Shown one piece after another: positions 13,156-42,300 of a DNA stretch of 58,197 nucleotides (the stretch's first letter is position 1; each line of letters begins with the position of its first letter). Both the position numbers and the translations under genes were made by a program. Below the pieces are notes generated by a model, which made no database searches, had not been told where the DNA came from, and saw nothing but the letters and a program-made list of their open reading frames with translations. Source of the stretch: Patescibacteria group bacterium (GTDB lineage: Bacteria > Patescibacteriota > Patescibacteriia > UBA1558 > GWA2-36-10); contig JBAYIQ010000005.1 of NCBI GenBank assembly GCA_041665545.1, positions 1 to 58,197 on the forward strand, written 5' to 3'.

Positions 13156-13233
13156 GGCAGGGTAGCTCAGTTTGGTTAGAGCGTGGGACTCATAAGCCCG
13201 AGGTCGTGGGTTCGATCCCCACCCCTGCTACCA
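13156..13233 (+). tRNA. tRNA with CAU anticodon (elongator Met or Ile2; not resolvable by eye)
   Basis: 78 nt. Acceptor GGCAGGG/CCCTGCT, anticodon loop CTCATAA. Positions 31:39 are an A-G mismatch. Confidence 0.8.
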
Positions 13234-13342
13234 CTCGATTCGCCTTTTGCTCCGCAAAAGTCTCACTCGTGGTCTCCGGTGCTTATCGCACCTCCGACCA
13301 TTCTCCATATCATGAATCGAGTGTTCCGAGCGAAGTCGAGGG
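13234..13342 (+). ncRNA. Conserved structured RNA directly 3' of CCA, copy 2
   Basis: Near-identical to copy 1 across the core (CTCGATTCGCCTTTTGCTCCGCAAAAGTCTCACTCGTGGTCTCCGGTGCTTATCGCACCTCCGACCATT...GAATCGAGTG), plus a GAGCGAAGTCGA hairpin. Confidence 0.6.
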
Positions 13343-13406
13343 ACATGAGATAAAGAGAAGCGCATCGAGGGACACGAGAAATCACCATTCTCCAAAAAAA
13401 AACGGT

Positions 13407-13652
13407 ATGAAAAAATTTTTCTTTTATTTTGCCCGATGTAACGATAATACCCTTTATGCTGGTTACACAAATAATATAAAAAATAGAGAAATAAAACACA
13501 ACGACGGTAAGGGCGCAAAATACACTAAATGTAGATTACCAATAAAAATAATATACTGGGAGAAATTTGATACCAGGATTGAAGCCATGAAACGGGAAGC
13601 ACAAGTAAAACGTTGGAGTAAAATAAAAAAAGAAAAATTAATAAAAAATTAA
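13407..13652 (+). CDS. Mini GIY-YIG nuclease-family protein (81 aa)
   Basis: MKKFFFYFARCNDNTLYAGYTNNIKNREIKHN... has GIY-YIG-type motifs (LYAGYT, R..H, and a Glu in REAQVKRWS). I trimmed the track ORF 13206..13652 to the Met after the tRNA and its trailer. Confidence 0.7.
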   Translation: MKKFFFYFARCNDNTLYAGYTNNIKNREIKHNDGKGAKYTKCRLPIKIIYWEKFDTRIEAMKREAQVKRWSKIKKEKLIKN

Positions 13653-13722
13653 ATTTTTTACGACGCGGGGTAGCCCGCCCGGCACGCCTACGGCGAAGCC
13701 GTGGCGGACGGGAGCAGTACCA
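13653..13722 (+). ncRNA. Leader module: 21-nt copy of the tRNA-fMet 5' flank plus nt 1-10, then a GC-rich nested hairpin
   Basis: ATTTTTTACGACGCGGGGTAG (13653-13673) is identical to 13987-14007. The following CCCGCCCGGCACGCCTACGGCGAAGCCGTGGCGGA aligns with the Leu module. Confidence 0.6.
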
Positions 13723-13736
13723 CACTGAATATGCAT

Positions 13737-13985
13737 ATGAAAATATTACTTTTTTATACTTATGTCCTAAAAAGTAAAAAAGATAACAAATTGTATGTTG
13801 GATATACCGATAATCTAAACAAAAGAATCCAAAAACATAATGATGGAAAAGTTGAATCAACAAAAAATAGAAGACCATTTACATTATTATATTTTGAAGC
13901 TTGCCTAGATAAGTATAAAGCAATAAAAAGAGAAAAATATTTTAAAACGGGCTTTGGTAGGAGATTTTTAAAAAGTAGGATATAA
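13737..13985 (+). CDS. Mini GIY-YIG nuclease-family protein (82 aa), paralogue
   Basis: MKILLFYTYVLKSKKDNKLYVGYTDNLNKRIQKHN... with GIY-YIG-type motifs. It lies entirely between the 21-bp direct repeats that flank the tRNA-fMet 5' end. Confidence 0.7.
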   Translation: MKILLFYTYVLKSKKDNKLYVGYTDNLNKRIQKHNDGKVESTKNRRPFTLLYFEACLDKYKAIKREKYFKTGFGRRFLKSRI

Positions 13986-13997
13986 TATTTTTTACGA

Positions 13998-14073
13998 CGC
14001 GGGGTAGAGCAGTTGGCAGCTCGCCAGGCCCATAACCTGGAGGTCGCCGGTTCGAGTCCGGCCCCCGCTACCA
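13998..14073 (+). tRNA. Initiator tRNA-fMet(CAU), CCA encoded
   Basis: 76 nt. C1xU72 mismatch and an A11:U24 pair (initiator hallmarks). Anticodon loop is CCCATAA, so position 33 is C rather than U. Confidence 0.85.
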
Positions 14074-14117
14074 ATTTATACAATCCGAGGTAGCTCAGTG
14101 GTAGAGCAGTTGGCTGT

Positions 14118-14703
14118 ACATTTACATCGTGTATGTGGTATACTTATTGATGTATGCCAGATACAAGAAAATATGTCGATCGTGCTGAGTATTTAAAACA
14201 AGCAGTTGCTAAACGTCGTAAAGATGTGAAAATAATGCTTGTAAAATATAAGGGCGGTAAGTGTAAGACTTGTGGCTATAAAAAATCCGTAGAAGCTCTT
14301 GAGTTCCATCATATAAATGAAAGAAAAAAGAAGTTTGGAATTTCTGGGCAAGGATTAACTAGATCTTGGAAAAGTGTAAAGCAGGAAGCTGATAAATGCA
14401 TCTTGCTTTGCGCAAATTGCCACAGGGAATTGCACGCAAAATAGTGCAGCTTCCTCAAGTAATTGAGGTTGACAAACGGGGTGAACTGTCCCGCAAAACG
14501 GGAGCCCGCCAAAGGCGGTGCCGGGAAGCCTAAGTCTAAAAGATATGGTAATCCGCAGCCAAGCCCTGAACCAGATGGTTCAGGGAAGGTTCAGAGACTA
14601 TCCGAAAGGAGTAGGCAGTATTTACTAGCCGAAGCGCCCCGCATCCTAAAAAATTATAGGATGATGATATAGTCCATCCCTTTAGGAAACTTAAGGATCG
14701 ATG
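14118..14703 (+). mobile_element. Group I intron carrying an HNH ORF
   Basis: The 5' exon ends in U and the intron ends in G. Core strings CCGCAGCCAAGCCC (14553-14566), GTTCAGAGACTA (14589-14600) and GATATAGTCC (14666-14675) match the conserved catalytic-core blocks of Tetrahymena/Azoarcus-type introns as I remember them. I did not confidently identify P1 or the internal guide sequence by eye, so boundaries are accurate to within a few nt. Confidence 0.75.
14154..14444 (+). CDS. HNH homing-endonuclease-like protein (96 aa), intron-encoded
   Basis: CKTCGY...LEFHHINE...LLCANCHRELH is an HNH motif with two CxxC pairs. The ORF lies wholly inside the intron. Confidence 0.8.
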   Translation: MPDTRKYVDRAEYLKQAVAKRRKDVKIMLVKYKGGKCKTCGYKKSVEALEFHHINERKKKFGISGQGLTRSWKSVKQEADKCILLCANCHRELHAK

Positions 14704-14747
14704 TAACCAATTGGTCGTGGGTTCAAATCCCTCCCTCGGAGCCATTA

Positions 14748-14778
14748 AAAAAATATCAACTTCTGTTGGTATTTTTTT
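14748..14778 (+). terminator. Terminator of the tRNA cluster
   Basis: Hairpin AAATATCAAC-TTCT-GTTGGTATTT followed by a T-run, immediately after tRNA-Asn. Confidence 0.6.
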
Positions 14779-14907
14779 AATCTTGGCAACACCTCCTTTT
14801 AGTCGGAAAAATTATTTATTCATTCCAAATTTTATGCCGAAGCCAAATAAAAAACCATCCTGAGTGTAAGTCGAAGGATGATTTTTTATTTTTAGTCGAT
14901 AAGTAAT

Positions 14908-21998: not shown

Positions 21999-22027
21999 GT
22001 GGATTGTTGTCGGCTACTGGCCCGCGC

Positions 22028-22444
22028 CTAGGCGTGGACCTGGTAGACCGAATTGCCCCGAGCCGACTTCCAGCTGTCCGCCGATCCGTCGCGGACCAGC
22101 GCTTCGAGGTTGGACCTCACCAACTGGAACAGAAAGAAGTTCCGCTTCTCCCACCGATAGAGGCGCCGCATGACCATGCCAGCGGTCATGGGATGCCTCG
22201 CCCTCTGCATGAGCACGAGCACGCGCTCGCTCATGGGCTGATCGACCATGATCGGCGTGAACTTGACCTCGATGGCCACACCGTCCAGTTCTCCGACGGC
22301 GAGGATCGACGCCGGACGACGATCGCGCGCCCTGCGGATGAACCTCTCGGCCACGGGGAAGACCTTCCCAGCGAAGATCGCGGGCACAGTGATCGAAAGC
22401 ATGATGATGGCGATGATGAGCACGAAAATCTCGATCGGATTCAT
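22028..22444 (-). CDS. Hypothetical membrane-anchored protein (138 aa), possibly with a winged-helix-like C-terminal part
   Basis: GGAGG lies 4 nt upstream of the ATG. There is one N-terminal TM helix (IEIFVLIIAIIMLSITVPAIFA) and the coding sequence is GC-rich. The wHTH idea rests only on the look of ERVLVLMQRARHPMTAGMVMRRLY and is weak. Confidence 0.5.
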   Translation of the reverse strand: MNPIEIFVLIIAIIMLSITVPAIFAGKVFPVAERFIRRARDRRPASILAVGELDGVAIEVKFTPIMVDQPMSERVLVLMQRARHPMTAGMVMRRLYRWEKRNFFLFQLVRSNLEALVRDGSADSWKSARGNSVYQVHA

Positions 22445-22552
22445 GACGCCTCCAATGGCTTGGGACCAGGAACAGTGACCTATATCACATTCATTGGCCT
22501 TTTATGGCCAAAATGCTTCGAAATTAATGCTTGATGAACTGTAAAACAGTAT

Positions 22553-22581
22553 ATCATAGCACAAAAAATAAAAGTTGTCAA
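22553..22581 (-). promoter_or_regulatory. Sigma70-type promoter for ORF 22028..22444
   Basis: Minus strand: TTGACA (22576-22581), 17 nt, TATGAT (22553-22558). Confidence 0.6.
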
Positions 22582-22596
22582 GCCACGGTTAAAAAT

Positions 22597-22627
22597 AACC
22601 TTCGAGGTTGCCATAACCTCGAAGGTT
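22597..22627. promoter_or_regulatory. Perfect 13-bp palindrome between the divergent promoters
   Basis: AACCTTCGAGGTT, spacer GCCAT, AACCTCGAAGGTT. It is extended by CACGG / CCGTG outer pairing. Confidence 0.5.
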
Positions 22628-22678
22628 GGCCGTGTCTACTAGTATTGCACTGATTTGTTGAACCCACGCTACAAACAC

Positions 22679-22707
22679 TTGACAAAATATTATTATTATG
22701 ATAGTAT
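22679..22707 (+). promoter_or_regulatory. Sigma70-type (extended -10) promoter for the NfeD-like/flotillin pair
   Basis: TTGACA (22679-22684), 17 nt ending in TGA, then TAGTAT (22702-22707). Confidence 0.5.
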
Positions 22708-22869
22708 AAAATGTTTTGACCAAATAGCAAAAAATTGAGCTTTTGGTTAAACCAAAAGTTCTTTGAAATGTCATACATCACTCGTAAAAACAACTAATAA
22801 GATCGAGTTTTCTGTCCACAAATCCTATGGCCACAGTGTCAGTGCAACCACGTAACGAAAGGAGTTTCG

Positions 22870-23460
22870 ATGGAACACCAGCAGACCTTCTGGCACATGC
22901 TGGGGAACGACGTGGGGATGATGACGTTCGCCGTTCTGGGCTTCATTGGCGGAGTGTTCACTTTGATCACTCTGGCCTTCGGCCACGGCGACCACAACAT
23001 CGACCACGACTTCAGCGCGGGCGACCACGACTTCAGCGCGGGCGACCACGACAACAACGCCGGCCCGAACGTGTTCTCGTTCCGCAACATCATGCTCTTC
23101 GTCACCGGCTTCGGTGGAATCGGCATGCTGGCCAAGTACCATGGCGCAAGCTTCATTGTGAGCAGCCTCTGGGGCGCTTTCTCTGGCTTCATCATGGCAT
23201 TCGTCGGCTACCTGATCTACCGCGCCCTGTACAAGAGCCAGGCGACCTCGCACATCGACAACTGTTCGCTGTGCGGTTCGATCGCTCTGGTCGAACAGGC
23301 CATCGTCGCTAACGGCATGGGTATCATCGTGGCCGGAGGCGAGATTGGCCACCTCGTTCGCCTCCAAGCCAGAACGAAGGAAGGAACCCCGGTCGCAAAC
23401 GGCCGACAGGTCCGCATCCTGAATATCAACGGGACCGAAGCTCTGGTCGAGGCCCTCTAA
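22870..23460 (+). CDS. YqiJ/NfeD-like membrane protein
   Basis: 196 aa with AAAGGAG upstream. Architecture: TM helix, acidic His/Asp repeat (HGDHNIDHDFSAGDHDFSAGDHD), further TM helices and a beta-rich C-terminal tail. This matches NfeD/YqiJ partners of SPFH proteins, and the gene sits directly upstream of a flotillin gene. Confidence 0.65.
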   Translation: MEHQQTFWHMLGNDVGMMTFAVLGFIGGVFTLITLAFGHGDHNIDHDFSAGDHDFSAGDHDNNAGPNVFSFRNIMLFVTGFGGIGMLAKYHGASFIVSSLWGAFSGFIMAFVGYLIYRALYKSQATSHIDNCSLCGSIALVEQAIVANGMGIIVAGGEIGHLVRLQARTKEGTPVANGRQVRILNINGTEALVEAL

Positions 23461-23503
23461 TCCCTGCTCCAACACACCACCGTCTTCCCAAAGGAGTATC
23501 AAG

Positions 23504-25228
23504 ATGGAACAGTCCGCACACTTCATGCAGTACCTGATCCCCGCGATCATCCTGTTCGTGCTGATCGCCTTTCTGGGTGTGATCCGCCTGGCGGCCAAGA
23601 ACTACATCAAGGTGGCCCCGAACGAGGTGGCCATCATCAGCGGCAGCCGTCACAAGACGACGGTCACGCTGCCCGGCAAGGAGAACGAGCCCCCCACTAC
23701 GGTGGTGCGCGGATACAAGCTGGTCACCGGTGGCGCCTTCTTCAAGGTGCCGATCCGCGATCGGGTCGAGATCATGAAGCTCAATCTGATCCAGATCATT
23801 GTCCAGGTCACCAACGTGCCCGCCCTCAACGGCGTGCGCGTGACGGTCAAGGGCATCGCCAACATCAAGATCCTCTCCGACCAGGCCTCCCTGGCTCTGG
23901 CCGTGGAGCGCTTCCTGGGGAACAACCTCAGCGAAGTGGAACGTGTGGCCAATCAGAACCTGGAGTCCAACCTCCGCGCCGTCGTCGGCACGATGACGGT
24001 CGAGGATCTGATCCGGGACCGGGCACAGCTCCAGGCCCAGATCCTCCGGGAAGCGGTCAGCGACATGTCCAAGATGGGTCTCGGTGTGGACCTGATGAAC
24101 GTCCAGGAGATCACGGACGAGAACGGGTACATCGAGGCCCTGGGCATGGCGCGAACCGCCGAGGTCAAGCGCGACGCAACCATCGGCAAAGCCGAGGCCC
24201 AGCGTGACGCCGACATCCGTTCCGCGGAAGCCGGACGGCTGGGCGAGACGGCCAAGGCCGTGGCTGCACAAGCCATCTCGGATGCGCAGAAGGCCAAGGA
24301 TATCCGCGTTGCCGAGAACGAGAGTCTGGTCAAGGCACAGCAGGCCAGGATCCCGATCATTGCGGAGCAGGCTCGAGCCGAGGAACAGAAGGCGCTCAAC
24401 ATCAAGACCGTCGAGGCCGATCGTGCCAAGACCGAAGCCGAGATCGCCCTGCAGCAAGCGGCTCAGCGCCGGCACGAGGCCGAGCTGAACGCAACTACGA
24501 TCATTCGGGCCACGAAGGACAAGGAGGCCCTAGTCATCGCTGCCGAGGCCAAGGCCCTGGCGGCGGAACGGGAAGGCGAAGCCTACCGCATCCAGCACGA
24601 GATGGAAGGCAAAGGTGACCAGGCCAAGCTGACTGCTGTGGCTCAGGGACGCAAGGAAGCGGCGGCGGCTACCCAGACCGAACTGGAAGCCGCGGCTGCC
24701 GGTAAGAAGGCCGGACTGCTGGCTGACGCCGAGGGTGTCAAGCAGAACGGTCTGGCCAGGGCTGCCGGAGTCGAAGCCGTTGGTGTGGCTGAGGCCACGG
24801 CTTCGGCCAAGAAGGCTGAGGCTTACACCCTGCTTGATGCCAAGGGCATCATGCTCATGCTGCTCCAGCTGTCGCCGGACGTCATCAAGGCGCTCGGCGT
24901 GGCTGTCGGCGACGCCATCAAGCCGTCGGCAGATGCCATCGGACAGGGCCTGGGTAACATCAAGGAACTGCGCATGGTGGATCTGGGTGGCGGTTCGGCT
25001 GGCGGGGCTGGCGGGGGCAATGTCCTCAATCAGTTCGTCAACCAGCCCATCCAGACCTTGTATGGCCTGATCGAACGGATGAAGGCCACGGGCATGGCAC
25101 CGGCGTTCATGAAGCTGGCCAAGGAGAAGCTCGGGCTGGATCTCACGGACGTCTTCGCTGGTGCTCCTACCCAGACGACGTCGGACGACACGCACAAGAA
25201 GGGTGGTGATGACACGGCTACGGCTTAG
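23504..25228 (+). CDS. Flotillin-like SPFH/band-7 protein (YqiK/FloT-like)
   Basis: 574 aa with AAGGAG 7 nt upstream. N-terminal membrane hairpin, an SPFH core (NYIKVAPNEVAIISG...GIANIKI) and a long Ala/Glu/Lys/Arg-rich coiled-coil region. Confidence 0.85.
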   Translation: MEQSAHFMQYLIPAIILFVLIAFLGVIRLAAKNYIKVAPNEVAIISGSRHKTTVTLPGKENEPPTTVVRGYKLVTGGAFFKVPIRDRVEIMKLNLIQIIVQVTNVPALNGVRVTVKGIANIKILSDQASLALAVERFLGNNLSEVERVANQNLESNLRAVVGTMTVEDLIRDRAQLQAQILREAVSDMSKMGLGVDLMNVQEITDENGYIEALGMARTAEVKRDATIGKAEAQRDADIRSAEAGRLGETAKAVAAQAISDAQKAKDIRVAENESLVKAQQARIPIIAEQARAEEQKALNIKTVEADRAKTEAEIALQQAAQRRHEAELNATTIIRATKDKEALVIAAEAKALAAEREGEAYRIQHEMEGKGDQAKLTAVAQGRKEAAAATQTELEAAAAGKKAGLLADAEGVKQNGLARAAGVEAVGVAEATASAKKAEAYTLLDAKGIMLMLLQLSPDVIKALGVAVGDAIKPSADAIGQGLGNIKELRMVDLGGGSAGGAGGGNVLNQFVNQPIQTLYGLIERMKATGMAPAFMKLAKEKLGLDLTDVFAGAPTQTTSDDTHKKGGDDTATA

Positions 25229-25280
25229 TAGAACTGACTGTCTCTGACGGTCTGAACTCTGAGCCAAAGCTTTCATAGAG

Positions 25281-25352
25281 GGGAGGCGGTGCTACACAGC
25301 ACCGCCTCCCACTCCAAAACAAGAGGGATCTTTCGTAACCCCTCTTTTTTTA
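25281..25352 (+). terminator. Tandem hairpins/terminator after the flotillin gene
   Basis: 13-bp stem GGGAGGCGGTGCT-ACAC-AGCACCGCCTCCC, then AGAGGG...CCCTCT followed by a T-run. Confidence 0.65.
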
Positions 25353-25400
25353 TTTTTTAACCAAAATAAAAAGGGTACTCCCTAATTACACTGTCAACAC

Positions 25401-25456
25401 AAAAAGACCCTGCACCGGAGCCACGTAAGTGGCGACTGGTACAGGGTCGATTTTTT
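25401..25456. terminator. Bidirectional terminator (serves ORF 25463..26422)
   Basis: Long imperfect stem GACCCTGCACCGG / CTGGTACAGGGTC flanked by A5 and T6. Confidence 0.55.
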
Positions 25457-25462
25457 ATACTT

Positions 25463-26422
25463 TTATTTTACTGGCACTGGTGGCGCCACTTGAACTGGCG
25501 AACCATCCTTATTGAAGGCCTGCACTTTTTGAGTCAAACACTGATAGCCAATACCATGTGGCCAGCGCGTGTCATAATAATAAGCCATGTCTTTGTTTTG
25601 AGTGTTGGCTGAAGCGTCAGTCAAAAAAGTAGTGCACAATTCATACTCCCGATCGCCTTTGACCTGGTATTTAAAAATTTCTTGAGTCTTGGGGTTTTTT
25701 AATAAATCATCACTAATATATGTGTACTCTGCTTTTAGGGCGTTAAAATCCGCTGGTAATTTTTTATATGTTTGATAATAATTATTTAAATCCTGATCAA
25801 TCTGATAAAAATTATTAGTAACCCTTTGATCAATCTGTCTGTTTCTAGCTACTTGAGGAGATTCTACTATAAACAGCGAAGCCACAAAAGTGACAATAAT
25901 CACTGCCAGTGAAGCAAAAAAGTATATTTTTATAACACTGTCTTTATAGCCAGCAGTTTTTTCCCGTCTAATATCATAAAAATAAAAGGAAAAAACAATG
26001 CCCGAAATAACCAGAGTGGTTAAAGATTTGAGAATAATTTGAGTAGTCAAAGCGCCGTTTAAAAAATTGACCAGAATAGCAATCAGAGAGCCAATCATTA
26101 CTAAAAAGGCAATGAAGATGATTAAATAAGTCAACCATTTGCGCACGCCTGATTCTTTGTCTAGCTCGCCTTTGTACAAACTGCCATAAATAAACTTATT
26201 GCAAAAATAATAAGTTGGTGTGGCAATCACTAGTGAGGCGATAGCAAACTTTAAGATATCCGAAGAAAAAGCCGCATTGTTTTGACTCAAAATATCAACA
26301 ATATATTTGTTGATCAATTGAAAAATTATTTGTCCAACGTTGACGGACACGAAGCCCAAAGCCACCAACGCTAACAAATAAAGAAACGCAAACTTCGCTG
26401 AATTGTTTTTTGTGTTATCCAT
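25463..26422 (-). CDS. Hypothetical polytopic membrane protein with a C-terminal soluble domain
   Basis: 319 aa with about six TM helices, followed by a Cys-containing tail (ELCTTF...GYQCL). Confidence 0.5.
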   Translation of the reverse strand: MDNTKNNSAKFAFLYLLALVALGFVSVNVGQIIFQLINKYIVDILSQNNAAFSSDILKFAIASLVIATPTYYFCNKFIYGSLYKGELDKESGVRKWLTYLIIFIAFLVMIGSLIAILVNFLNGALTTQIILKSLTTLVISGIVFSFYFYDIRREKTAGYKDSVIKIYFFASLAVIIVTFVASLFIVESPQVARNRQIDQRVTNNFYQIDQDLNNYYQTYKKLPADFNALKAEYTYISDDLLKNPKTQEIFKYQVKGDREYELCTTFLTDASANTQNKDMAYYYDTRWPHGIGYQCLTQKVQAFNKDGSPVQVAPPVPVK

Positions 26423-30313: not shown

Positions 30314-33300
30314 CTATTTTAGTTCTTCAGCATATTCAGCAAACACCCAGCCAACTTTATTTTCAGTTAAAGCTATTTGATACCAGCCAAATTTTTCTAA
30401 ACCCTGAGCCGCCACTTGACTAAGCAAGTCGTATTTTTCTCCGGCACTTACTTTGGCCACAACGGCTGTTTCTTTGGAAGCTTCCTGCCTGACATTGAGC
30501 CAACCAGTTGGTGTATCTTTAATAATAACTTGTTTCTTCATTAAAATATCTTCCGTAGCGGGTACTGTGCTACTAGAAGTGGAACTGGCACTTTCTGAAC
30601 CAAAACTAAAAGCCATATTATTATCAGCTAAAACAGGAATATTATCAAGCTTATTGACGTCAGTTTCAGAGGCGACGGTCACATTGTTGGCTGACCTAAG
30701 TTCGTCAGTCTTAATATATTTTGATAAATTTTGTCTAATATTAGCCAAAATACCATATTTATCAACTAACAAATACAAAACTATAAAAATCAAAACAAAA
30801 GTAATAAGCCAGACTTTATTTTGTCTGATATTTTTGAACAAGCGAGTAAAAAATTGCTTAATATAGATTAAAAAACTTGTCGATACTTTGGCCTTTGCTT
30901 CGACGCTAGCTATATTGGCTGGACTATTTTTGCTAACTGCTGCTTTCTTCTTTTTTCTGCGCCCACCAGAGGAATTCATTTTTTCCATATCAAGCGGCTT
31001 GCCAGTCAAAATATGCGACTGCAAGGCCATCTGACCATTGGCTATGGCTACTTGATGCTTCCACATGGAGAACAAGATGGTCACTAACAAACCAAAGCCG
31101 GTGACAAAAGCAATAATGATCCCCCACACCGAAATGGTCTGTATACCACCCAAGGCTCCCAAAAATCCGCGAGAGGCATCAGCTTGGCTCAATAGTGACT
31201 TCAATTCATCCAATTCTGTCTGCACACTAATAAAACTTTCTTTATTTTCTCGATAAGTCATAATTTTATCTTGCGGGGAGGCAGTATTTTCTTTTTGAGT
31301 ACGCAGAATTTTTTCTACTTTGCTATCAATATCATTTTTGAGTAATAAAGCTTGAGAAGAAAGTTGATTTTTTTCTAATTTCTTATAAAAATCATTGGCC
31401 TGCGTCTTGGCTATAGTCAAATCATTTTCAGCAATCTGCCAAATATCTCGCATTTTAATAAATTTTTTGACCGAAGCACCCGGAGCCAATTCAATCTCGC
31501 CAGCCGCATACAAAGTATCTAGCTGAACATCGTACTGAATATTGAAACCGCCATCATCCATAATGTGCTCTACTTTAGCTTCCTTTGGAAGATAAATCTT
31601 GAATGGCACTTTTTGAGCAGTCTTGGCTGGATTGGAAAGCATGATGTTCAAATCCACTGAACCAGAGGTGTACCAAGTGCTGACTATCGGAGCCGTGGCC
31701 TGCTGAACCACTTGACGCTGAACAGTGGTGACGGCTTTGTAGTCGGCTAATTTATTACGCACATATTTTATATCCGTCATATTCTCCTGCGAGATGGACA
31801 GTATTGAACTCAAAGTATCGCTATCCAGACGGCCCAGTTTGGTATTGATGTTCTGAATGGAGTTGGAGATGGTACCCATGGCTGTGAACATCTCCTCGGG
31901 CTTCACATTGTAAACATTGGTATTGTTGGTGGTACTACTGCCGGAGCCAACTTCAATATTATCAATACTTGTTTCTAGAGTAGCGATGCTAGCTTCAATA
32001 TTATCTAGTTGAGTTTTGATTAAAGCAATATCTGCCTTGATCAAAGTCACGTCGTCCTTGATGCCAGCCACATCGGACTGGATGGTGCTGATCTTAGTCA
32101 CTGGTACGGCTAATGTTTTTAAAATAGTAAAAGCGTCACTGCTAGCTGGCGCAAAGGGAAGATCTGGTTCTACTGTAATGGCTTTGGTTGTACCATTATA
32201 ATCATCTATTCTTCTGGCTACACCACTGTTTTGGCCAGAAGTAAAAGTCAGCAGTGCGTGAGCATATAAATCATTGACAGCGCTGGTAAGATTTGTGCCA
32301 AATAAAGAAATTGTCGGGCTAACTTCGGCTGTAGAAACAGCGGAGCGAATGGCAATCAAATCATTGGACAACAAATCAACTGAGTTACTCACCGCGTCTA
32401 TACTATTACCCAGTGTCGTTTCAGTGGACTGCAAATCAGATAATGTGGCTAGCGACCCACTGTCTAAATCCGCTCCTGATAAATAACGACCACTGTAGGC
32501 CCAAATAGAAGCCGCGTCCAAAGTAGCAGTATTTGAAGTCTGGGCCAAAATAGTAAAGGTGTCAGCATTGGCAGGAGCCAGAGCCAAAGCAGGATCGACC
32601 GTGATCGCCTTGGTGGTGCCATTGTAGCCCATAATCCTTCTCGCCTGACCAATATTTAAACCCGAGGTGAACAATAAGATATTATTTTTATAAAAATCAT
32701 TAGTGGCATTAGTCAAGGCAGTAGCAAATACTGTGGTTGATGGCGCCAAATCATTCACTGAAGTTTCCGAAACAATCAAGGCATTGATAATTTTATCTAG
32801 CTTAGTGCTGTTGACGCTAATAGCACTAGCCAAAACTGTTTCCGTATCTTGAATATCTGACAAAGTAGCTAAAGAACCAGAGTCTAAAGTGGCACCTGAT
32901 AAATACCTGTCGCCATAGGTCCAGATAGCGGCCGCATCAACTGCCGAGTTGGCTGTCTGCGCTAAAATAGTAAAGGTATCGGCATTAACCGGAGCTAAAG
33001 ATAAAGCTGGCGAAACAGTAACCTGTTTGCTAGCCCCGACATAATCGGTAATACGACGCGCTTGACCAGCGTTGACGCCAGAAGTAAAAACCAAGACACC
33101 GTTGTTATAAAAATCATTACTGTTGCTGGTCAAAGTTGTAATAAATTGATTATCTGAAGCGCCGGCATCATTGACCACTTTTTGTTCCACTATTAAATTA
33201 TTAATCAGCGTATTTAATTGTCCGCTCAAAGTACTTTCGGTAGATTGTATATTTGACAAAGTGGCTAAAGATCCGGAGTCTAAAGCGGCGCCTGACAAAT

Positions 33301-36300
33301 AGCGACCATCGTAGGCCCAAATAGCGGCTGCATCAAGTGAGGCATTGGCGGTTGAGGCCAAAATAGTAAAAGTATCACTGCTAGATGGAGCAACCGACAG
33401 AGCCGGAGTAATAGTCAATTTTTTGGTAGCGCCAACATAATTGCTAATGCGTCTAACCTGACCAGCATTGGATCCAGAGGTAAATACCAAAACACCGTCA
33501 TTATAAAAATCATCATTGGCATTGGTCAGGGTGGTAATAAATTCTGTGGTTGAGGGACTTGGGTCATCAACGGCTTTTTGGGCGACCAATAAATTATTTA
33601 TCAAATTGCTTAAACTATTGGCAACCGCTGTCACCTCAGCTGATGAAGCGCGAGAAGAAATAGTAGTATCAATATTGGTTTTTAATAAAGAGCCAATGCT
33701 ATTGATAGTCGTGATTGAGGTCAAAAGTGTATCCCAAACTCGTTGTGCCGTCAGATCGCCAGATGTTAGGGTGCGAGTTTCATAAGTCCAAATTTCAAGA
33801 GCTAAAGCGGCTAAACCATCATTCTCAATACTAGTAATTGTCCTGGTGCCCTCACTCCAAACATCTGATGCCGTCAAATTACTAGTGCCACGAGAAGAAA
33901 TAGTAGCATTCAAATTATCAACTATCAGTTTGCCAATAGAACCACCCGTAGAAAGCAAAGCTGATGCTATATTCCAGACTTGAGCTGGATCAGATAAGGT
34001 GACTCCACCACTCAAACTGCGGCCACCAGCTGACCAGACATCAGCCGCTGAAATATTATTTAAGGCCTGTATGTCAGCCAAAGTAGCCAAGGAGCCACTA
34101 TTCAAAGTAGCGTCAGTCAAACGACGAACATTGTACTCCCATATTTCTTGGGCAGTCGCCCCGCCACCGCCAGTAGCGCTAGAATAATAACTTAAAATAA
34201 TAAATTCATCATTGAAAGCTGGCGCATAAGGCATGGCCGCATCCACCGTAATTGCTTTGGTGGCGCCATTGTAGCTAGAAATTCTACGGGCAATACCAGC
34301 ATTCTGGCCACTCATCATAACCACCATTTGATTTTGATAAAAATTAGAAGTGGCTTGTGTCATGTCTGTCACAAAGACAGTGGCTGAAGCGGCCACATCA
34401 TTGACCAAGCCCCGCTTGATGGCCAAGCGATCATTTAAAAGTTGCCCAAAAGATCCATCAATATCAGCAAATGACCCCACTTGTGCTCCCCAAATACTAG
34501 TAGCCGTCAAGCCAGTTGACAACCACGGCACCACTGGTTGACCAGAAGAATGAAAATCCAAAGTACCAGTATCTACTGTACCCGATAAAACAGCCATATC
34601 ATCTATGTACACCGATGGCTGTCTAAAAATAATATAATCACCCATCGTGGCATTGGTCAGAGTGGTACTTAAAAGATGTGGCACTACTCCACTACCCTTC
34701 AAATACAATAACTGGGCAGTATTTTTTACAATATCAAATATCTTACCATTAGCGTCTTTAAATTTATAGCCGACCCATTGATTGGTGGTCCAACTTTTAT
34801 CAACATCCTCAACAATGATTGGCAAATAATTACCCAAGGAATCATCGATAATTTCACTGGTGCCAGAATCAGCGGCCACAAAAGCTGACTGCACGGAAAA
34901 TTTTATATCGGCAATAGCTGACTCTGTAGGCGTACCAGACACCACAAACTGTTGCCAATCATTAGCCGTGTCTTGTGCTGTCCAAGTAAGGTTGGCACCA
35001 GTCATACCCAGACCAGATAAGGTAACTGTCGGTAAATTAGTAGACCCATAATAACTATTGATATTCATATAGCCCGTAATGGCTAGTGGCTGGTTAGCCA
35101 CACCAATGACTTTGGCTGTATATTCAAGTGGCGCATCAGGATTCAGCGAATCCAGACGCCACGCATAACCACTAGCTGTGTGAGCAGTGGAATCATTGAG
35201 ACCTAACCCGGAAGTTCGCATATTACCAAAAGTGGTAAAATTAACTATGTCTTTAGTCGAGCTAGAATAATTGCCGCGAATATCAGCTCCGGGGATAGTC
35301 AGACCATAAAAATGTTCTGGTATCCTAGACATATTATTATAATCGGCCATGCCAAACAAAACCGGACTTAATAATTGAGTATTAGAGCCGGTAAATTGCA
35401 TCAATGATTCTGCTTCAAAAGTAGTGGTATTAGCTGGTATACTAATATCTGCCTCATTCCAAGAACCACGACCAAAAATACTACCACTATCCATAATACC
35501 CACATTGGCCGTGGTTTGGGCCACGCTGATTCCTGCGCCATATCCAGCTTGATTTAAGGTGACAGTATCCGAGACCGAGCCATCAAAAACATTATCAGAC
35601 ATCGTGAGGAAAGAATTACCATTGAGCCGTATACCAAAATTATTTACTGAAAAAATATTGTTAGCGATAGTCATTTTGGCTACGCCACTATTTAAATTAA
35701 CTGCTCCGCTAGTAATACCCGTCACACCATTATTATAAAACTGGCTATTAGCAATAGTGTACAAACGTCCAGACACAAAAGAAGCCGCACCATTAGCCGA
35801 GGTCAAAGCCGCATTAGTGTTGCGACATCCCATAAATATACTGCCATCAATGCCAACGTTTTGTGAAGCTGTAGCATTATAACCAGTGCCTAAAGTAGTG
35901 GCGCCAAAGTTGGTGGTCACAAAATATGCTCCCACAGTATTAGTGCCTTGAGTTTTGGCTGATACCGTATAAGCACGATCATAATAATTATAAAATACTG
36001 ACTTACTGACTGTCTGTGTTGGTTTGACCAATGTGGAAGTATAAGGATTGTTCATTATAGAAAAATTACTATACTGATTCTCAGTAGAAAGATGACTAAC
36101 GTTCAGATTCGCTAAACCTGACAAACCCACAGCTACTGTACCAAAAGCATTGCCCATGTGTATGGGCGTGGCCACTGTGGCACCGGTAGCATTTATTTCC
36201 TCATCCGACCACATGTGTATACTACGCTTGAGATTCAACACTGGCGAATTGTAAGGAGCTGAAGTAGAGTCCCGCTTGGCCTTGTGATGGAAAGTAAAAT

Positions 36301-39300
36301 TATTTGACCAGCCAGCCAAAGTGGCCGCTGTACCATTTTCTAGAAAACCAGAACCAAACTTTATCCTAGCTGATGGTGTGTATTTTTCTCCAGTATTATC
36401 CACCCATATTCTTGTGCGATCCGGATAGGTCACAACTCTTATTCTATCATTGCCCGTATCAGCACCGTTGGTAAAAATCATGGCTGGATTGCCATAGGCA
36501 TAGTCTGCCCAAACAAAACCCTCTTGAGGATTCATGGCCGCGTCAAAACTAGCGCGAAAAATATTAATACCAGTACTAGTCGCGTAGCCAGTACCGACAG
36601 TCTCACCTCCCACCCAAGCGCTGGTTGGTGGTGTAAAGTTACCCCAGTCAGTGGCCGAAGTACTGATAGAATTATCAAAAATCGCAAACTCATCCAAAGC
36701 GCCATCAAAAGGCGCAGCAAAATCATAACGATTACCGAGCTTAATCAAACCAGCGTTTATACCTCTAGTACCGACAGCCGACCCCTGACCAATGGTAAAG
36801 GCCGTGCCATTCAACCAAGCTCTTTTGGCGTTAGCTGTTTCATCCCAAGCCAAACGAAAATGATACCAAGTACCAGCGGTAGCTGAAAATGCTTGCCTTA
36901 ACAAGGTACCTTGAGCAGCGGCGGCATACAGGCCAACTTCCAAGAAACCTTCTGGGGTAGAACTGGAAGTATTTATGTGCCTGATAAATAAACGATCAGT
37001 ATCTATCTGAGCAACATTGGCTTGATCAAGCAAATACATACCATAAGGATGCGTGCTAGTAGCTGGATAACCGTTATAAGAGGGCTTGAACCAAAAATCA
37101 ATTGTGCCATTTTGTCTGGTGGTAATTGTGCCACTTTGGGCCTCAATATTATACCTAGTTGGCACCGCGCTACCAGTCAAAGTAAATGCTGGAGCTATCA
37201 TCACCGCGCTACCTATGCCATTCTGACCAGTCCAAGAACCAGTATTGCGTCGCATGTTATCCTGCAAGAGCAATTGACGCGCGCCAAATTTTGGTCCAGT
37301 CGGTGTGCCAGAATTTATACGCAAAGAGATTTCACTATTTGGCGATGTATAGGTACTACCTGCCGTAGCCGTACCAGCAGCACCAGTAGCACTACCAGTG
37401 ACATCATATTTACCACTAGTAGGGTTCCATTCGAAATCCCAAACTTCATATTTGGTATTGACACCAGTAGTAATTGGCACGCTACTATCAAGACCAAAAC
37501 TATTTCTAATAGCCGTAGAACCAATATATATCTTATCCCCTATTTCCGGATTTACTACGCCATTCCAACCACCTTTGTGTTTGATAATAAAATTAAGATA
37601 ACTGCTAGTAAAAGGAACACTCGGATAAGCCGTGCCTATCAGACCAGCACTTTCTCCGGTCACTCGCCAAGAACCAGTATTATTAAAATTATCAGAAAAA
37701 CCAAGGTCCGTGCTTAAATTATCAAATTTTACTTTATTACCCACACCAGCCGAACCAGCACCAGCATAAACACCAAAGCGACCACCTGCGTAGGTGGCAT
37801 TCGTCTGAGAAGTATCCCACGACCCTTCGGTCGGATCAGTATCACAATCTGTGGTAGCCCAAAACTTAGCATTGAGAGTGGTGCCTACGGCCTGCGCTTT
37901 GAGACAATACCAAGCAGAAGTGGCAAAGGCCTTGGAAAAAGCTGAGCCAATTACTGTCGGCACACCTGCCAAGGTAGTATATAAACCAATGGTATTGACT
38001 GCGTTAGTTTTGTTAATCAAAGCGGCATAGCCATTACCATCAATACTTTGCCTAAAAGTAAGACCTAATTTCCTATTACTACCGTCTTCCACATTATCCA
38101 TATACACCAATGCTTTGATGGTATAATCGCCATCACTCAAACTTCCATAGCTATTATGCAAAGCTATGTTGGCTTGATTTGTTTCATTGATATTTAATGT
38201 CCCGTCACTGATGTGCCAAATATAAGGAGCCGACGGCAAAACATTTACTGTACTGGCCATTCTTTGCACCTCTACCCAACCTGGGGAATTACCATATTCC
38301 AACATATACTGCTCATTGGGATTATAGGTGGCTCCTGGTGTCACAGCGCCAATCTTGGCTTCTTGCACGCCAGAAGACACGGTGATGGCTCCAGAGGAAA
38401 GTCTCTCAATACCACTCATGCCCATAGGAGTGGTCTGGTTGGTCGGAGAGGTGGTCCAAGAACTGACTGAATCAACTTTTAATCTAACCCAATAAGCATT
38501 AACTCCATTAACAGTTGTCTTGGCCGGAGTGCCAGTCAAATCATTTGGTGTCCAGGATAAAATACGACGATTGTTAGTAGCGCCATTTTCCGTCAAAAAA
38601 TTACTAGGATTAAAAGACTTCCATTGCCCGCCATTCAATCGGCTGATTGTTGCTGTTTGATCCGTGGTATAGCCCAAGGGCACCGGCTCGGTAAAGGTAA
38701 TAACGCCAGCGGCGATTACGCTAATGCGTCGATAAATAGGATCAGAATTATTATCGTCAATCATCACTACTTGATCAACACCAAAGTTAGCTTGATTGCC
38801 AGAGGTCACTGACACAGTATAAGAATTTATAGTTGTATTGGCTGACAATGGCACGGAATGTCCGGTACGCATTTGGTATTTATAAGCATCGCGGGGTGTA
38901 AAAGATGTCCAGCCAGCGCCATTATAAAATTGCCATGACAAGGAAGCGCTAGCATCCATGGCTACACCCATATTCAACTCCAAAGAATAAATCATGTTAC
39001 TACCTTGATCGCCAAAATATATAGCATCATCAGCCTCTACTGTTGGATTGGCCCCATCCACAAACATGGTCCAAGCTGATGTAGTAGCATAGTTTCCAGA
39101 AAAACCACTTGTACCATTATTATTATAAATATCAGTCAGGGGTATGGTGCCAATTTCTGCCACTTCCATATTTGGTGTGGGCAAAGAATTACGTCCACCA
39201 GCGGTAGCTAGTCCTGTCCAAACTGGAAACTGATTACCATCATCATTGGCTCCCATCCGTAAAGATGAAAAATTGTTATCAACTGCTTGGTTGGTAGCGC

Positions 39301-42300
39301 CAGCGACAGCTATGTTATCCAGTGGCTGCCAATTACCCACTACATTATCCTTGACATCTACCCAAGTATTGCCAGCATCAGCGGAATTGTTACCCAAGAA
39401 ACCCGTGTCAATATTACCATCAATATCTACAGCTAAGTCGCTTTTCATGGTCCGAAAAGCGTCTGAGCCAGCAACATAAAGATTTGTACGCCCGGCGCGA
39501 GCATTTTGTTGAGTAGCCGTAATAGCGCCAGTCATAGTATAAATACCCGCTCGCCTATCAGCTCCAGTAGGTAATTCGGTAGCTGGTCCCTTGGCCACAA
39601 AAGCACTTTGCCCCGTAGTATAGCCCACAACCAAGTTGGCTGTGACCGTAAGCGTTGTCGCATTTTCAACAGCCGCTACTATTCTAGTTGTGGGTAAAGA
39701 ATCATTATCGTCAATTATAATAGTATCACCGGGGTTAAAACCAGTAGTAGAAATTACTGTCAAAGTAGCGCTAACGGCTGTGTCAGCATTTAAATTTGTA
39801 TTGACTGCTGGACTAACATTATCCCAATATATATCTACCAGAGACGAAGCGGGAATAGCCGCTCCACTTTGACCAAAGGCCACTGAAGCATCGGAATCTA
39901 CTAATATTTTGCCAGGGATAGTCAGGCGATAATGCTTGTTAGCACTGGTATCAACATTTAGCTTGGAACCGGGGCAAACAACCGCTGATATCCAACCGCC
40001 ATTTTGTGAATAAGCCGAGTAGTTGGTACGCGTGCCTGCACCATCATTGATGGCATCACCTGACTTACCGGTGTAAGCCATAGCCGCGTCCCAATCACGA
40101 TCTATTGTTACCACGTGCTCTTGTTTGCTAGACCAGTTAAGATCATTTGTTAAAGCCGAGGCATCACCCGTATCTGGATCAGCTTTTCCATTACCAACTA
40201 TTATAAGATCACCATCAGCTGGGGCTGCGGTATTACCCGTACCGTAGGCCACAAAGAAAATGTGTCTATTGCTTAAAAAAGGATAACGAACAAGCGAAGT
40301 TGCCAAAGCTTCCATTTTAGCATAAAACAACAACACGGATGTGGTGCGCGCTAAAAGAGTTGTAGTGCCTGCTGGATTTTGAGTATGATTAAATGTGGTC
40401 CATTTCATTACCGCACCATCAGCCGGAGTACTAACGGACATGTTAGCTGAAATTTCAGCTATCTGAGCATTATCTGCTGTGTTATAACCAGTGACAAAAG
40501 CTGCGTCCAAAATAAGTGATGGCCCACCGCCACAATTAACATCTGTGCCATTTACTGTCGAAATAAAGCGAGTAACAACGACATTGGAATTATTATCCCA
40601 AATCGCGACACTGGGCGAAGTACCAACAGCCGCGGTAAATCCAGCAATACTAGCCACGCAGACTCTAGTAGTGGCTGTAGAATTTGCTGTCAATGTGGTT
40701 ATGGCTCCCTGGACTATTCTTTGTTTCCACGTAGCTTGCGCTATACTAGCATTTTTATCAGTAGTAAAACCAATCACTGTGGCGGCTGTGGTGATAATAG
40801 AAGCACCGCCCGAACAATTAGAATCAACCTCATTTACTGAAGCTACGGTTAAGGAAACAGTGGTTGTATTGGAATCCCACAAGTTTATTGTTTGATTAGC
40901 AGCAAAACCAGTTATTGAAGCCACACACAACCTAGTTGTCGCCGTAGAATTAGCAGTCAGGGTAGTAAATGGTACTCCATCGTTGACCCAGGAAGCTGCT
41001 GTACCACCAGTGGCTGGGGTAGTTAATTTTCTACTTTGGGTACCGGAAACAGAACCAGCCAATGTCCAATTTGAGCTGGCCGAAGAATAAGTGGCAGTCC
41101 AGTGTTGATTTTCGGTACGCCTTACTGTCGGCATACCAGTACCAGCTGCTGAGTTGCCAGCTACCATAGCGGTAAGCAAACCAGCAGCGCTAGAATTACC
41201 GGTCAAAACCAAAGGCATATTCACGGTTGGAGCGCTGGCGCCAGCAATATCAGTAACACCAATGGTTCTCAATGTGCCATCAACTGTAGGAAAATTACCA
41301 TAAGGAGCATTAGCGGCCCAAGTACCAAAAACAGGAGCGCCAGCGCCAAAGTTGCTAATACGAATACCGTAATGTTTGGTGGTCAATACACCCACTGCTG
41401 GATCAAAACGAAAATCAATCATAGCATGCCCAAAATTTCCTGGCGTCAAGTTTTCACCAGACAAGGCCTGATTGAACTGCCAAATAGTTTTGCGCAACAC
41501 TATTGTATCGTCTGGGTAGTTGTAAGCACCCTGAGTGCCGGTAACATATCCCGTGCAAGAGGTAGTGCAACTAGCTGTCGGAAACTCCAAAAGCTCAACC
41601 AAAATATCCGGATTTGATAAAGAAGTAGCCGTCGGATTTTCCATGGATAACATAATGCCAGACAAATCAGCGCTGGCATTGGGTTTGAAACCAATAAACT
41701 GTGAGGTGGCCAAAGTAGCATTGGCTGCCAAGGCCAAATACCCAATTGCCTGTCCACCAGCACTACCATCAGTCGTGCCACCAGGATTGATTGGGTTAAA
41801 ATTGCCAGACTCAGCATCACCGTTGACGCCGTCGCCAGAATAAGCCAAAGCCGTCAGCCAATTTGAACCACTTAAAGTGGTAGTTTGCCCAGAAACTTTT
41901 ACCAAGCCAGTGAAAGTAGCAGCATAAGCTGGTGTCCGATCTCTAAAAAGCCACTCAAAAAGTGGAGTTAAAGAAGCCACACCTAGTGTGGAAATAACCA
42001 AAAAGAAAATCATCCAGCCAGCCATCGCTCGCCTCAACAACAATTGATTTGGCTCCCTGAGTAATTTCTTAAAATCACCAAAACCAATGACCGGTGACAT
42101 GGCCTCCTGAACTTCGCGTCCTTTGGGTAATATCTTTTTTTCGTATGTTTGAGGAATATATTTAATAAATGGCTTAGCTAGCCACAACATAAACAATTTA
42201 AATTCTTTAACCCTAAAGTTAAATTTAATCTTCAGTGACTTGGGACTGGCAAATAAACTAACCGCTTTAGCCCCAAAAAATCCTAAAAATTTGACATAAA

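Follow-up and report, generated by a model that had tools for sequence, protein, structure and literature searches.

How can a bacterium obtain a functional asparagine tRNA from a gene that is interrupted within its anticodon? The question is raised by a locus on contig JBAYIQ010000005.1 of the Patescibacteria group bacterium assembly GCA_041665545.1, of which positions 1 to 58,197 were analysed and are referred to below as the window. At 14084-14744 on the forward strand, a tRNA-Asn(GUU) gene of this member of the Patescibacteria (candidate phyla radiation, CPR) is split between U35 and U36 by a 586-nt insert. The best explanation as a whole, to which we assign a probability of roughly 0.9, is that the insert is a self-splicing IA-type group I intron, with a homing-type HNH gene in the loop (L1) of its first helix and with hairpin-controlled expression of this gene.

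Split tRNA-Asn gene

The features of the split gene are as follows:

14084-14117, forward strand: 5' exon of tRNA-Asn, tRNA positions 1-35, ending in GGCUGU (ARAGORN on joined exons and with intron search)
14118-14703, forward strand: group I intron of 586 nt with the terminal guanosine (omega-G) at 14703 (RF00028, ARAGORN i(35,586), homologs at the same site)
14704-14744, forward strand: 3' exon of tRNA-Asn, positions 36-73 and encoded CCA (ARAGORN)
14745-14780, forward strand: terminator-like 16-bp A/U-rich hairpin and U run directly after the CCA (minimum free energy -14.7 kcal/mol, z-score -8.9)

When 14084-14117 and 14704-14744 were joined, ARAGORN called a 75-nt tRNA-Asn(gtt) with encoded CCA. 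In the native sequence, its intron search returned tRNA-Asn (gtt) i(35,586) at exactly 14084-14744. An earlier note on this DNA, made from the letters alone, had proposed both the complete 75-nt tRNA-Asn(GUU) and a break between anticodon positions 35 and 36, and the two calls agree with it. Its reading of the splice-site nucleotides was also correct, since U14117 precedes the 5' splice site and G14703 is the last nucleotide of the 586-nt insert. Across the joint, the acceptor stem forms 7/7 pairs and the anticodon stem 5/5 pairs.

In default mode, ARAGORN found six tRNAs in the window, none of which is a tRNA-Asn. Neither ARAGORN nor Rfam detected a second tRNA-Asn in these 58 kb, as the same note had stated. 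Copies of tRNA-Asn with and without an intron rarely occur together in one genome (Nakagawa et al., mSystems 2026, PMC13011429), and it is plausible that splicing is essential in the host. A tRNA-Met gene ends at 14073. Because it lies only 10 nt upstream, the tRNA-Asn gene is probably transcribed within a tRNA cluster. The hairpin at 14745-14780 was absent from the output of the terminator scan, which demands at least three G-C pairs.

Structure of the intron core

The earlier note had suggested a search with the Rfam covariance model RF00028 (Intron_gpI). This model matched 14473-14696 on the forward strand over its full length with 81.2 bits, compared to a gathering score of 50, and with an E-value of 4e-19. 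The three conserved core blocks that had been recognised by eye are present and correspond to P4'/P6, J6/7-P7 and J8/7-P7' (P, paired region; J, joining segment). The comparison with an Azoarcus-type core (IC3) had to be given up, as the hairpins P7.1 and P7.2 between P7 and the 3' strand of P3 represent the IA layout. Based on this layout the intron belongs to subgroup IA, which agrees with the classification of Nakagawa et al. (PMC13011429). The following helices were assigned, all on the forward strand:

14112-14119: P1 5' strand, exon GGCUGU and the first two intron nucleotides AC, paired with 14444-14451, with a U35-G14446 wobble
14444-14451: P1 3' strand, GU and the internal guide GCAGCU, beginning inside or just after the TAG stop codon (14442-14444)
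14453-14468: P2 hairpin CCUCAA-GUAA-UUGAGG, six pairs, each 96-99% paired, 4-6 pair types
14477-14483: P3 5' strand CGGGGUG, partner 14635-14641, 96-100% paired, three outer pairs with 3-5 types
14487-14524: P4 5' strand (14487-88 and 14522-24), partner 14553-57, inner pairs 93-100%, 3-4 types
14528-14549: P5/P5a, P5 97-100% paired, P5a 36-71% where the alignment is difficult
14553-14557: P4 3' strand CCGCA (98-core alignment)
14558-14590: P6 (14558-60/14588-90), 98-100% paired, and P6a (14564-72/14577-85), first six pairs 88-100%, up to 6 types
14594-14600: P7 5' strand, consisting of G, a bulged A and GACUA, partner 14670-14675, fitting the Rfam consensus AGACUA / UAUAGUC
14601-14630: P7.1 (UCC-GAAA-GGA) and P7.2 hairpins, the IA hallmark, with 32 nt inserted between P7 and P3' compared to the Rfam model
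14635-14641: P3 3' strand CGCCCCG (98-core alignment)
14642-14663: P8 hairpin, first five pairs 82-100% paired, 3-5 types
14670-14675: P7 3' strand UAGUCC, preceded by J8/7 AUGAUA (Rfam, 98-core alignment)
14679-14696: P9 hairpin with GAAA loop, 71-97% paired, 3-6 types

The percentages and pair types stem from 98 distinct intron cores, which were aligned with MAFFT blind to structure. The hand-drawn structure of the window intron was projected onto this alignment, and the partner column slid by 1-3 positions served as control. In the controls, pairing was usually far lower wherever the columns vary. Compensatory changes were observed in P2, P3, P4, P5, P6, P6a, P8 and P9. Apart from P7, the helices from P3 to P9 were mostly 88-100% paired, several of them with multiple pair types. 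For example, a G-C pair of P3 is replaced by A-U in one homologous locus (L001). P7 was invariant in 98/98 cores, so that covariation speaks neither for nor against its pairing. The closing pair of P7.2 covaries (G-C 30, C-G 24, U-A 3, A-U 2), and the other pairs of P7.1 and P7.2 are weakly supported in a poorly aligned region. For the window sequence on its own, a different register of the P4 5' strand with UG at 14519-20 is equally possible. The Rfam alignment places P2/P3 of the window in the CGGGG.../GGCGG region. This placement was rejected, as family comparison gives CGGGGUG/CGCCCCG as P3 and identifies the extra sequence as an optional insert. In the window, the bulge of P4 carries approximately 32 extra nt in the form of two hairpins (around 14489-14521). 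Inserts at the same point of P4 were found in at least six other members (L025, L088, L098, L107, L113 and L123), with or without a nuclease gene.

The guide GCAGCU (14446-14451) starts 2 nt past the stop codon of the open reading frame (ORF) in the intron. In almost all family members, GCAGC(U/C) is followed at once by a GNRA-capped P2 hairpin and a purine-rich joiner. In 102 distinct introns, the first intron nucleotide and the nucleotide before the guide form G-C in 41 cases, A-U in 24, G-U in 10, C-G in 6 and U-A in 2, with an A-A mismatch in 18. The innermost intron pair of P1 is thus supported by its covariation across these introns. Exon position 31 was not found to covary with the guide; where it is A31 (GACUGU), GCAGC is retained and the position is mismatched. 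Judged from these sequence comparisons, C32-U35 are the only exon nucleotides whose part in P1 is secure. An alternative P1 formed via a short GUA near the start of the intron (around 14138) was rejected, since it would comprise no more than 3 bp and lacks conservation, in contrast to the family-wide conservation of GCAGC and P2.

HNH gene in the P1 loop

One ORF belongs to the intron:

14154-14444, forward strand: HNH endonuclease ORF of 96 aa in L1 (Pfam PF01844, PHROG HNH families)

The ORF matches Pfam PF01844 with 28.1 bits (cut-off 21.4) and PHROG HNH families with E-values down to 1.8e-27, in line with the 96-aa HNH ORF described in the earlier note. The position given there, in the 5' peripheral part, holds insofar as the gene lies in the 5' part of the intron; it needs correction in that the gene fills the P1 loop and the guide lies after it. 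Most gene-less copies have 5-54 nt between splice site and guide, compared to 305-364 nt in gene-bearing copies. The ORF is assigned to the P1 loop because L1 accounts for all of the length by which gene-bearing and gene-less copies differ.

Residues C37, C40, H52, H53, C86, N88, C89 and H90 are invariant in 20 homologs, and H94 is nearly so. The two CxxC zinc motifs, the HH pair and the N...H residues of the HNH motif are kept in the window ORF. Comparison with the closest relatives yielded pN values of 0.12-0.14 and pS values of 0.66-0.69 (proportions of nonsynonymous and synonymous differences). The corresponding dN/dS of 0.07-0.10 indicates past purifying selection on the protein. In most relatives, the ORF continues through the guide into P2, which is translated as ...TQLP.... 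Owing to a 1-nt indel that distinguishes it from L001, the window ORF stops before the guide, and it is the shortest full-motif member among those compared.

At least 661 homologs of approximately 100 aa were found, largely in CPR lineages. Two homologs sampled via their encoding contigs (P0004 and P0006) both lie in a split tRNA-Asn, in unrelated neighbourhoods. Among the best 80 metagenomic relatives, 60 are demonstrably located in a tRNA-Asn split at 35/36, and most of the remaining 20 lie on contigs that end too soon to tell. Degenerate remnants of the HNH gene are present in L012, L035, L066 and L077, and presence or absence of the gene varies at one conserved site across many phyla. Such a pattern of gain, decay and loss at a single site fits a homing endonuclease. 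As the relatives stay tied to tRNA-Asn genes, inside or beside them, the link between nuclease and target is supported as well. Judged from these comparisons, the HNH protein most likely serves as a homing endonuclease whose substrate is the intron-less tRNA-Asn gene, cut or nicked near 35/36.

Possible expression signals of the HNH gene

The start codon of the HNH gene is covered by a hairpin:

14136-14159, forward strand: leader hairpin UGGUAUAC/GUAUGCCA, in which 14136-14143 pairs with 14152-14159 and covers the AUG (14154-14156); minimum free energy -19 kcal/mol, z-score -3.58

The 5' arm of this hairpin contains an extended -10-like element, TGGTATACT (14136-14144), and a consensus promoter scan lists 14115-14144 with TG extension. 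For comparison, 90 distinct homologous leaders were analysed together with shuffled leaders; the leaders are related, and the shuffle controls therefore overstate significance. A -10-like hexamer ending 2-13 nt before the ATG was found in 59/90 leaders, compared to 11.4 ± 3.1 in shuffled ones (maximum 21). The hexamers included TATACT (31) and TATAAT (20), and the TG extension occurred in 46 leaders. A motif resembling a Shine-Dalgarno sequence was present in only 4/90. Stems of at least 6 bp covering the AUG were observed in 65/90 leaders (21.7 ± 4.5 in shuffled leaders). They are often built from different sequences, and 48 of them share nucleotides of their 5' arm with the -10-like hexamer. 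In phage T4 td/I-TevI, a hairpin conceals the start region and contains a promoter as well. By its sequence, the hairpin in the window would silence the gene in the precursor, and transcripts started inside it may be translatable.

Distribution of the intron family

Species-representative genomes were scanned with a pattern composed of the 3' intron core and the start of the tRNA-Asn 3' exon. The counts given here are lower bounds among the matches listed and not an unbiased census; taxon labels are record titles, some of which are plainly wrong. More than 100 species-representative genomes carry the same split gene. At least 113 loci, including the window and four metagenome loci, contain a complete split tRNA-Asn. 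In these 113 loci, the acceptor stem has 6-7 of 7 pairs (7/7 in all but one), the anticodon stem has 4-5 of 5 pairs across the joint, and the junction is always CUGU|...G|UAA. The larger groups of copies were:

Patescibacteria: at least 49 copies, 19 with HNH gene
Cyanobacteriota: at least 13 copies, 0 with HNH gene
Nitrospirota: at least 10 copies, 4 with HNH gene
Planctomycetota: at least 2 copies, 1 with HNH gene

Single or few copies were found in Elusimicrobia, Omnitrophota, Margulisiibacteriota, Methylomirabilota, Binatia, Limnocylindria and deltaproteobacterial metagenome-assembled genomes (MAGs). The intron length is bimodal, with approximately 190-345 nt or 510-723 nt.

Copies with an HNH gene outside the Patescibacteria are L020, L024, L066 and L124 of the Nitrospirota and L034 of the Planctomycetota. 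L066 is located on a 2.1-Mb Nitrospirales contig, and its HNH gene is degenerate. In L034, a GGAGG motif takes the place of the -10-like element ahead of the ATG. A 22-kb contig classed as viral (L125, IMGVR_UViG_3300001199_000352) contains a split tRNA-Asn with an HNH-containing intron; this copy is either carried by a phage or lies on a CPR contig that was wrongly assigned to viruses. Two loci with archaeal titles, L073 ('Woesearchaeota') and L078 ('Methanosarcinales'), have a bacterial-type tRNA-Asn with U1-A72 and encoded CCA. The intron is also present in 'uncultured Gammaproteobacteria' binchicken MAGs (L013, L056, L074, L101 and L119), and the 5' exons of L056, L074 and L101 are identical to those of many Patescibacteria copies. 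In both groups, the titles probably mislabel contigs or bins.

Free-standing relatives and archaeal-type copies

Among the best 80 relatives of the HNH gene on viral contigs, 77 have no ribozyme core downstream and are thus free-standing, some of them on contigs of 180-450 kb. In three metagenome loci, the HNH gene lies outside the intron and beside the tRNA-Asn gene. One of them (L282:1299-1791) features an intron-less tRNA-Asn with an unusual anticodon stem (GCCCUGUUAAGGC) and an HNH gene approximately 110 nt downstream. In the other two, the tRNA-Asn contains a gene-less intron and the HNH gene is located immediately upstream (L273:1495-2119) or approximately 80 nt upstream (L262:1201-1926). 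As a lead provided by three loci, they may represent intermediate stages on the way of a free-standing nuclease gene into the intron. For phage introns, Bonocora and Shub reportedly described how a free-standing nuclease that cuts the insertion site of an intron later moves into that intron.

Three loci from bins labelled Pace- or Woesearchaeota (L007, L012 and L060) carry the intron in a tRNA-Asn with G1-C72, without encoded CCA and with a T run after the gene, unlike the bacterial copies, all of which have U1-A72:

L060, contig CAYIBB010000024.1, 64-647, reverse strand: archaeal-type copy, RF00028 97.2 bits
L007, 1884-2215: archaeal-type copy, RF00028 83.1 bits
L012, 894-1390: archaeal-type copy, RF00028 score below threshold

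The 8.9-kb contig of L060 also encodes MCM with an archaeal winged helix, TBP, aIF-1A, aIF-2beta and a KH/Dim2-like protein. Its HNH ORF comprises 113 aa and is 54% identical to the window ORF. TYW3 is encoded near L012. All 39 archaeal group I introns of Nawrocki et al. 2018 (PMC6125680) are located in rRNA genes, and a Pacearchaeota tRNA case was attributed to mis-binning (Williams 2020, 10.1101/2020.01.27.920355). Mis-binning is ruled out for L060 because the archaeal genes share its contig; a chimeric assembly may have brought the intron and these genes together.

These findings can be combined into a wider scenario. The family would still be moving between both prokaryotic domains and would include the first reported archaeal tRNA group I introns. 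It would have arisen when a free-standing phage-type HNH gene targeting the tRNA-Asn anticodon region entered the P1 loop of a resident intron, and its expression would be switched by a start-codon hairpin with its own promoter. We put this forward tentatively, with the odds leaning against it.

Relation to published introns

The number of split bacterial tRNA classes was raised from 4 to 21 by Williams 2020 (10.1101/2020.01.27.920355), whose Asn class is 'Asn.4Ug' as cited by Nakagawa et al. (PMC13011429). In 95 complete Patescibacteria genomes, the latter authors found 15 tRNA-Asn(GUU) and 3 tRNA-Asp genes split at 35/36, with HNH (PF01844) genes in four of the tRNA-Asn introns. Of the introns at 35/36, 25/28 belong to subgroup IA. 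Subgroup IC makes up 81% of all bacterial tRNA introns and was not found among tRNA introns of Patescibacteria, and among complete genomes nuclease-carrying IA introns at 35/36 occurred only in Patescibacteria (PMC13011429). The tRNA-Asn intron of GCA_016700035.1 self-splices in vitro at the predicted junction, and exon ligation is lost when its terminal G is changed to C. tRNAscan-SE, ARAGORN and tFind miss or mis-call tRNA genes of this class (PMC13011429).

The intron of the window is an ordinary member of this published class. The host list of the earlier note (Leu, fMet, Ile and Arg) represents the state before 2020. Its view that an Asn host would be unusual is superseded, as the class was published between 2020 and 2026 and is the commonest tRNA intron type in Patescibacteria. 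With the Asn.4Ug introns of that phylum, the window intron shares the host gene, the site, the IA-type core and the PF01844 gene. It differs in coming from a draft MAG outside the complete-genome set, in the P4-bulge insert and in a slightly shortened ORF.

More distant systems can be distinguished from it by site, core or nuclease. The classical IC3 introns comprise those of Anabaena/Nostoc tRNA-Leu(UAA) at 34/35 and of Azoarcus tRNA-Ile and Agrobacterium tRNA-Arg at 36/37. They likewise self-splice, lie in the anticodon loop and form P1 from anticodon-loop nucleotides, but have compact cores without P7.1/P7.2 and are usually ORF-free. Group I introns with HNH endonucleases are known from phages, for example I-HmuI of Bacillus phage SPO1 and its relatives. 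Like T4 td/I-TevI, these are group I introns carrying nuclease genes; unlike the intron of the window, they reside in protein-coding hosts and encode larger nucleases with separate DNA-binding modules, whereas the window nuclease has only approximately 100 aa and sits in L1. Free-standing phage HNH proteins (PHROG 2255 and 3106) share 53-66% identity with the window ORF over residues ~16-96, but are not intron-borne and many are longer (100-270 aa). The cyanobacterial tRNA-fMet intron (I-Ssp6803I type) is also a group I intron in a bacterial tRNA anticodon loop with its own homing endonuclease gene. Its site is 33/34, however, and its nuclease is of the unrelated PD-(D/E)XK family (PF11645 in PMC13011429).

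In the publications consulted for this analysis, we found no description of the two-hairpin insert in the P4 bulge, of the start-codon hairpin with its -10-like element, of free-standing relatives beside tRNA-Asn or in phage contigs, or of the intron in an archaeal (DPANN) tRNA-Asn.

Alternative explanations

Several observations count against the explanation given at the outset. A P10 helix joining the 3' exon to the guide region was not identified, as inspection revealed no complement to UAACC upstream of the guide; many group I introns can do without this helix. The T stem contains one U50-U64 mismatch. The window protein is short of 5-15 C-terminal residues with its HNH motif complete, and its nearest solved structure by sequence is a weak match to the HNH domain of a group II intron maturase (E-value 0.003). 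The basis of the promoter reading is a consensus match and conservation among related sequences.

Part of this would also suit a functional ribozyme whose HNH gene no longer serves homing, either as a decaying passenger or because it is kept as a maturase or general nuclease. The loss of the C-terminal extension of relatives in the window ORF and the degenerate copies elsewhere in the family point in this direction. So do the synonymous sites, which are almost saturated even in comparison with the closest relatives and indicate long vertical persistence instead of recent invasion. Selection on the protein, as measured by dN/dS, and the intact metal-binding and catalytic residues argue against decay. 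To our knowledge, HNH proteins do not act as group I maturases. Relatives beside tRNA-Asn even outside the intron are what would be expected of a site-specific nuclease, and splicing in vitro was protein-free (PMC13011429). We thus regard a gene without a homing function as unlikely. A dead, non-splicing pseudogene, with an uninterrupted tRNA-Asn elsewhere doing the work, is considerably less probable still. The window represents 58 kb of the genome and a second copy could lie outside it, and the mismatch in the T stem could be taken as a sign of decay. Against this, every core helix is intact and fits the family consensus, the two exons are undamaged and form perfect acceptor and anticodon stems, and Patescibacteria genomes are small.

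If the reading is shifted by 2 nt, the host becomes a tRNA-Thr(UGU) with the intron at 33/34. ARAGORN indeed reports tRNA-Thr(tgt) i(33) at approximately 45 homologous loci among the matches listed, and the same mis-call is documented (PMC13011429). In the window, the program itself calls Asn. With the shifted boundary, the intron would end in A14701 and break the omega-G rule, by which this reading is ruled out for the window. All bacterial members have U1-A72 and G73, and the spliced product of a homolog was sequenced with the junction at 35/36 (PMC13011429). Of the alternatives, this one has by far the lowest probability, which we consider negligible.

Proposed mechanism

Under the preferred explanation, a self-splicing IA intron with a homing-type HNH gene in tRNA-Asn, C32-U35 with neighbouring stem nucleotides and the first two intron nucleotides would pair with GU-GCAGCU 327 nt downstream to form P1, in which the usual U-G wobble marks the splice site. 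The core of the ribozyme, from P2 to P9 (14453-14696), would fold and free guanosine would attack after U35. The terminal G14703 would then take the place of the guanosine, and the exons would be ligated with the GUU anticodon restored. We infer splicing activity from the anatomy of the intron and from the in vitro self-splicing of a homolog (PMC13011429).

The HNH nuclease would cut or nick intron-less tRNA-Asn genes near 35/36, and repair would copy the intron into them. The buried start codon would deny ribosomes access to the precursor during folding of the ribozyme. The -10-like element in the hairpin could yield a near-leaderless mRNA without the inhibitory arm, as in T4 td/I-TevI. We likewise infer the target of the nuclease, the expression switch and the status of the gene as sole tRNA-Asn copy.

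Neighbouring genes

Within the same tRNA cluster, two tRNA-Met genes enclose a back-to-back pair of small ORFs with GIY-YIG nuclease domains (13206-13652 and 13701-13985, forward strand; Pfam E-values 2.6e-16 and 1.2e-17). The listed start of the first overlaps a tRNA, and its true start is probably located further downstream. A DUF5671 gene is also among the flanking genes, and a single ORF of 4143 aa occupies 30314-42745 on the reverse strand. These neighbours agree with a Patescibacteria origin of the DNA. The region 22001-26000 has a G + C content of 54-56%, compared to approximately 40% for the genome, and may be foreign DNA or a compositionally odd gene. It contains a gene for a 574-aa SPFH/Band 7 protein (23504-25228, forward strand), together with several long ORFs that overlap on both strands. 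At E-values of 0.01 or below, this block (22-26 kb) matched no Rfam family.

Implications

If confirmed, the hairpin over the start codon and the promoter-like element in it, the free-standing relatives beside tRNA-Asn genes, the nuclease copies outside the Patescibacteria and the archaeal copies could be additions to the literature on this intron class. A genome in which the split gene is missed seems to be without tRNA-Asn, and its completeness estimate is lowered, a point already made for the published class. The copy in the window is a clean and intact example in which the ribozyme and the nuclease gene are both present. It could be used for in vitro studies of a very small HNH nuclease (96 aa), the likely target of which, the anticodon region of tRNA-Asn, is almost universal.

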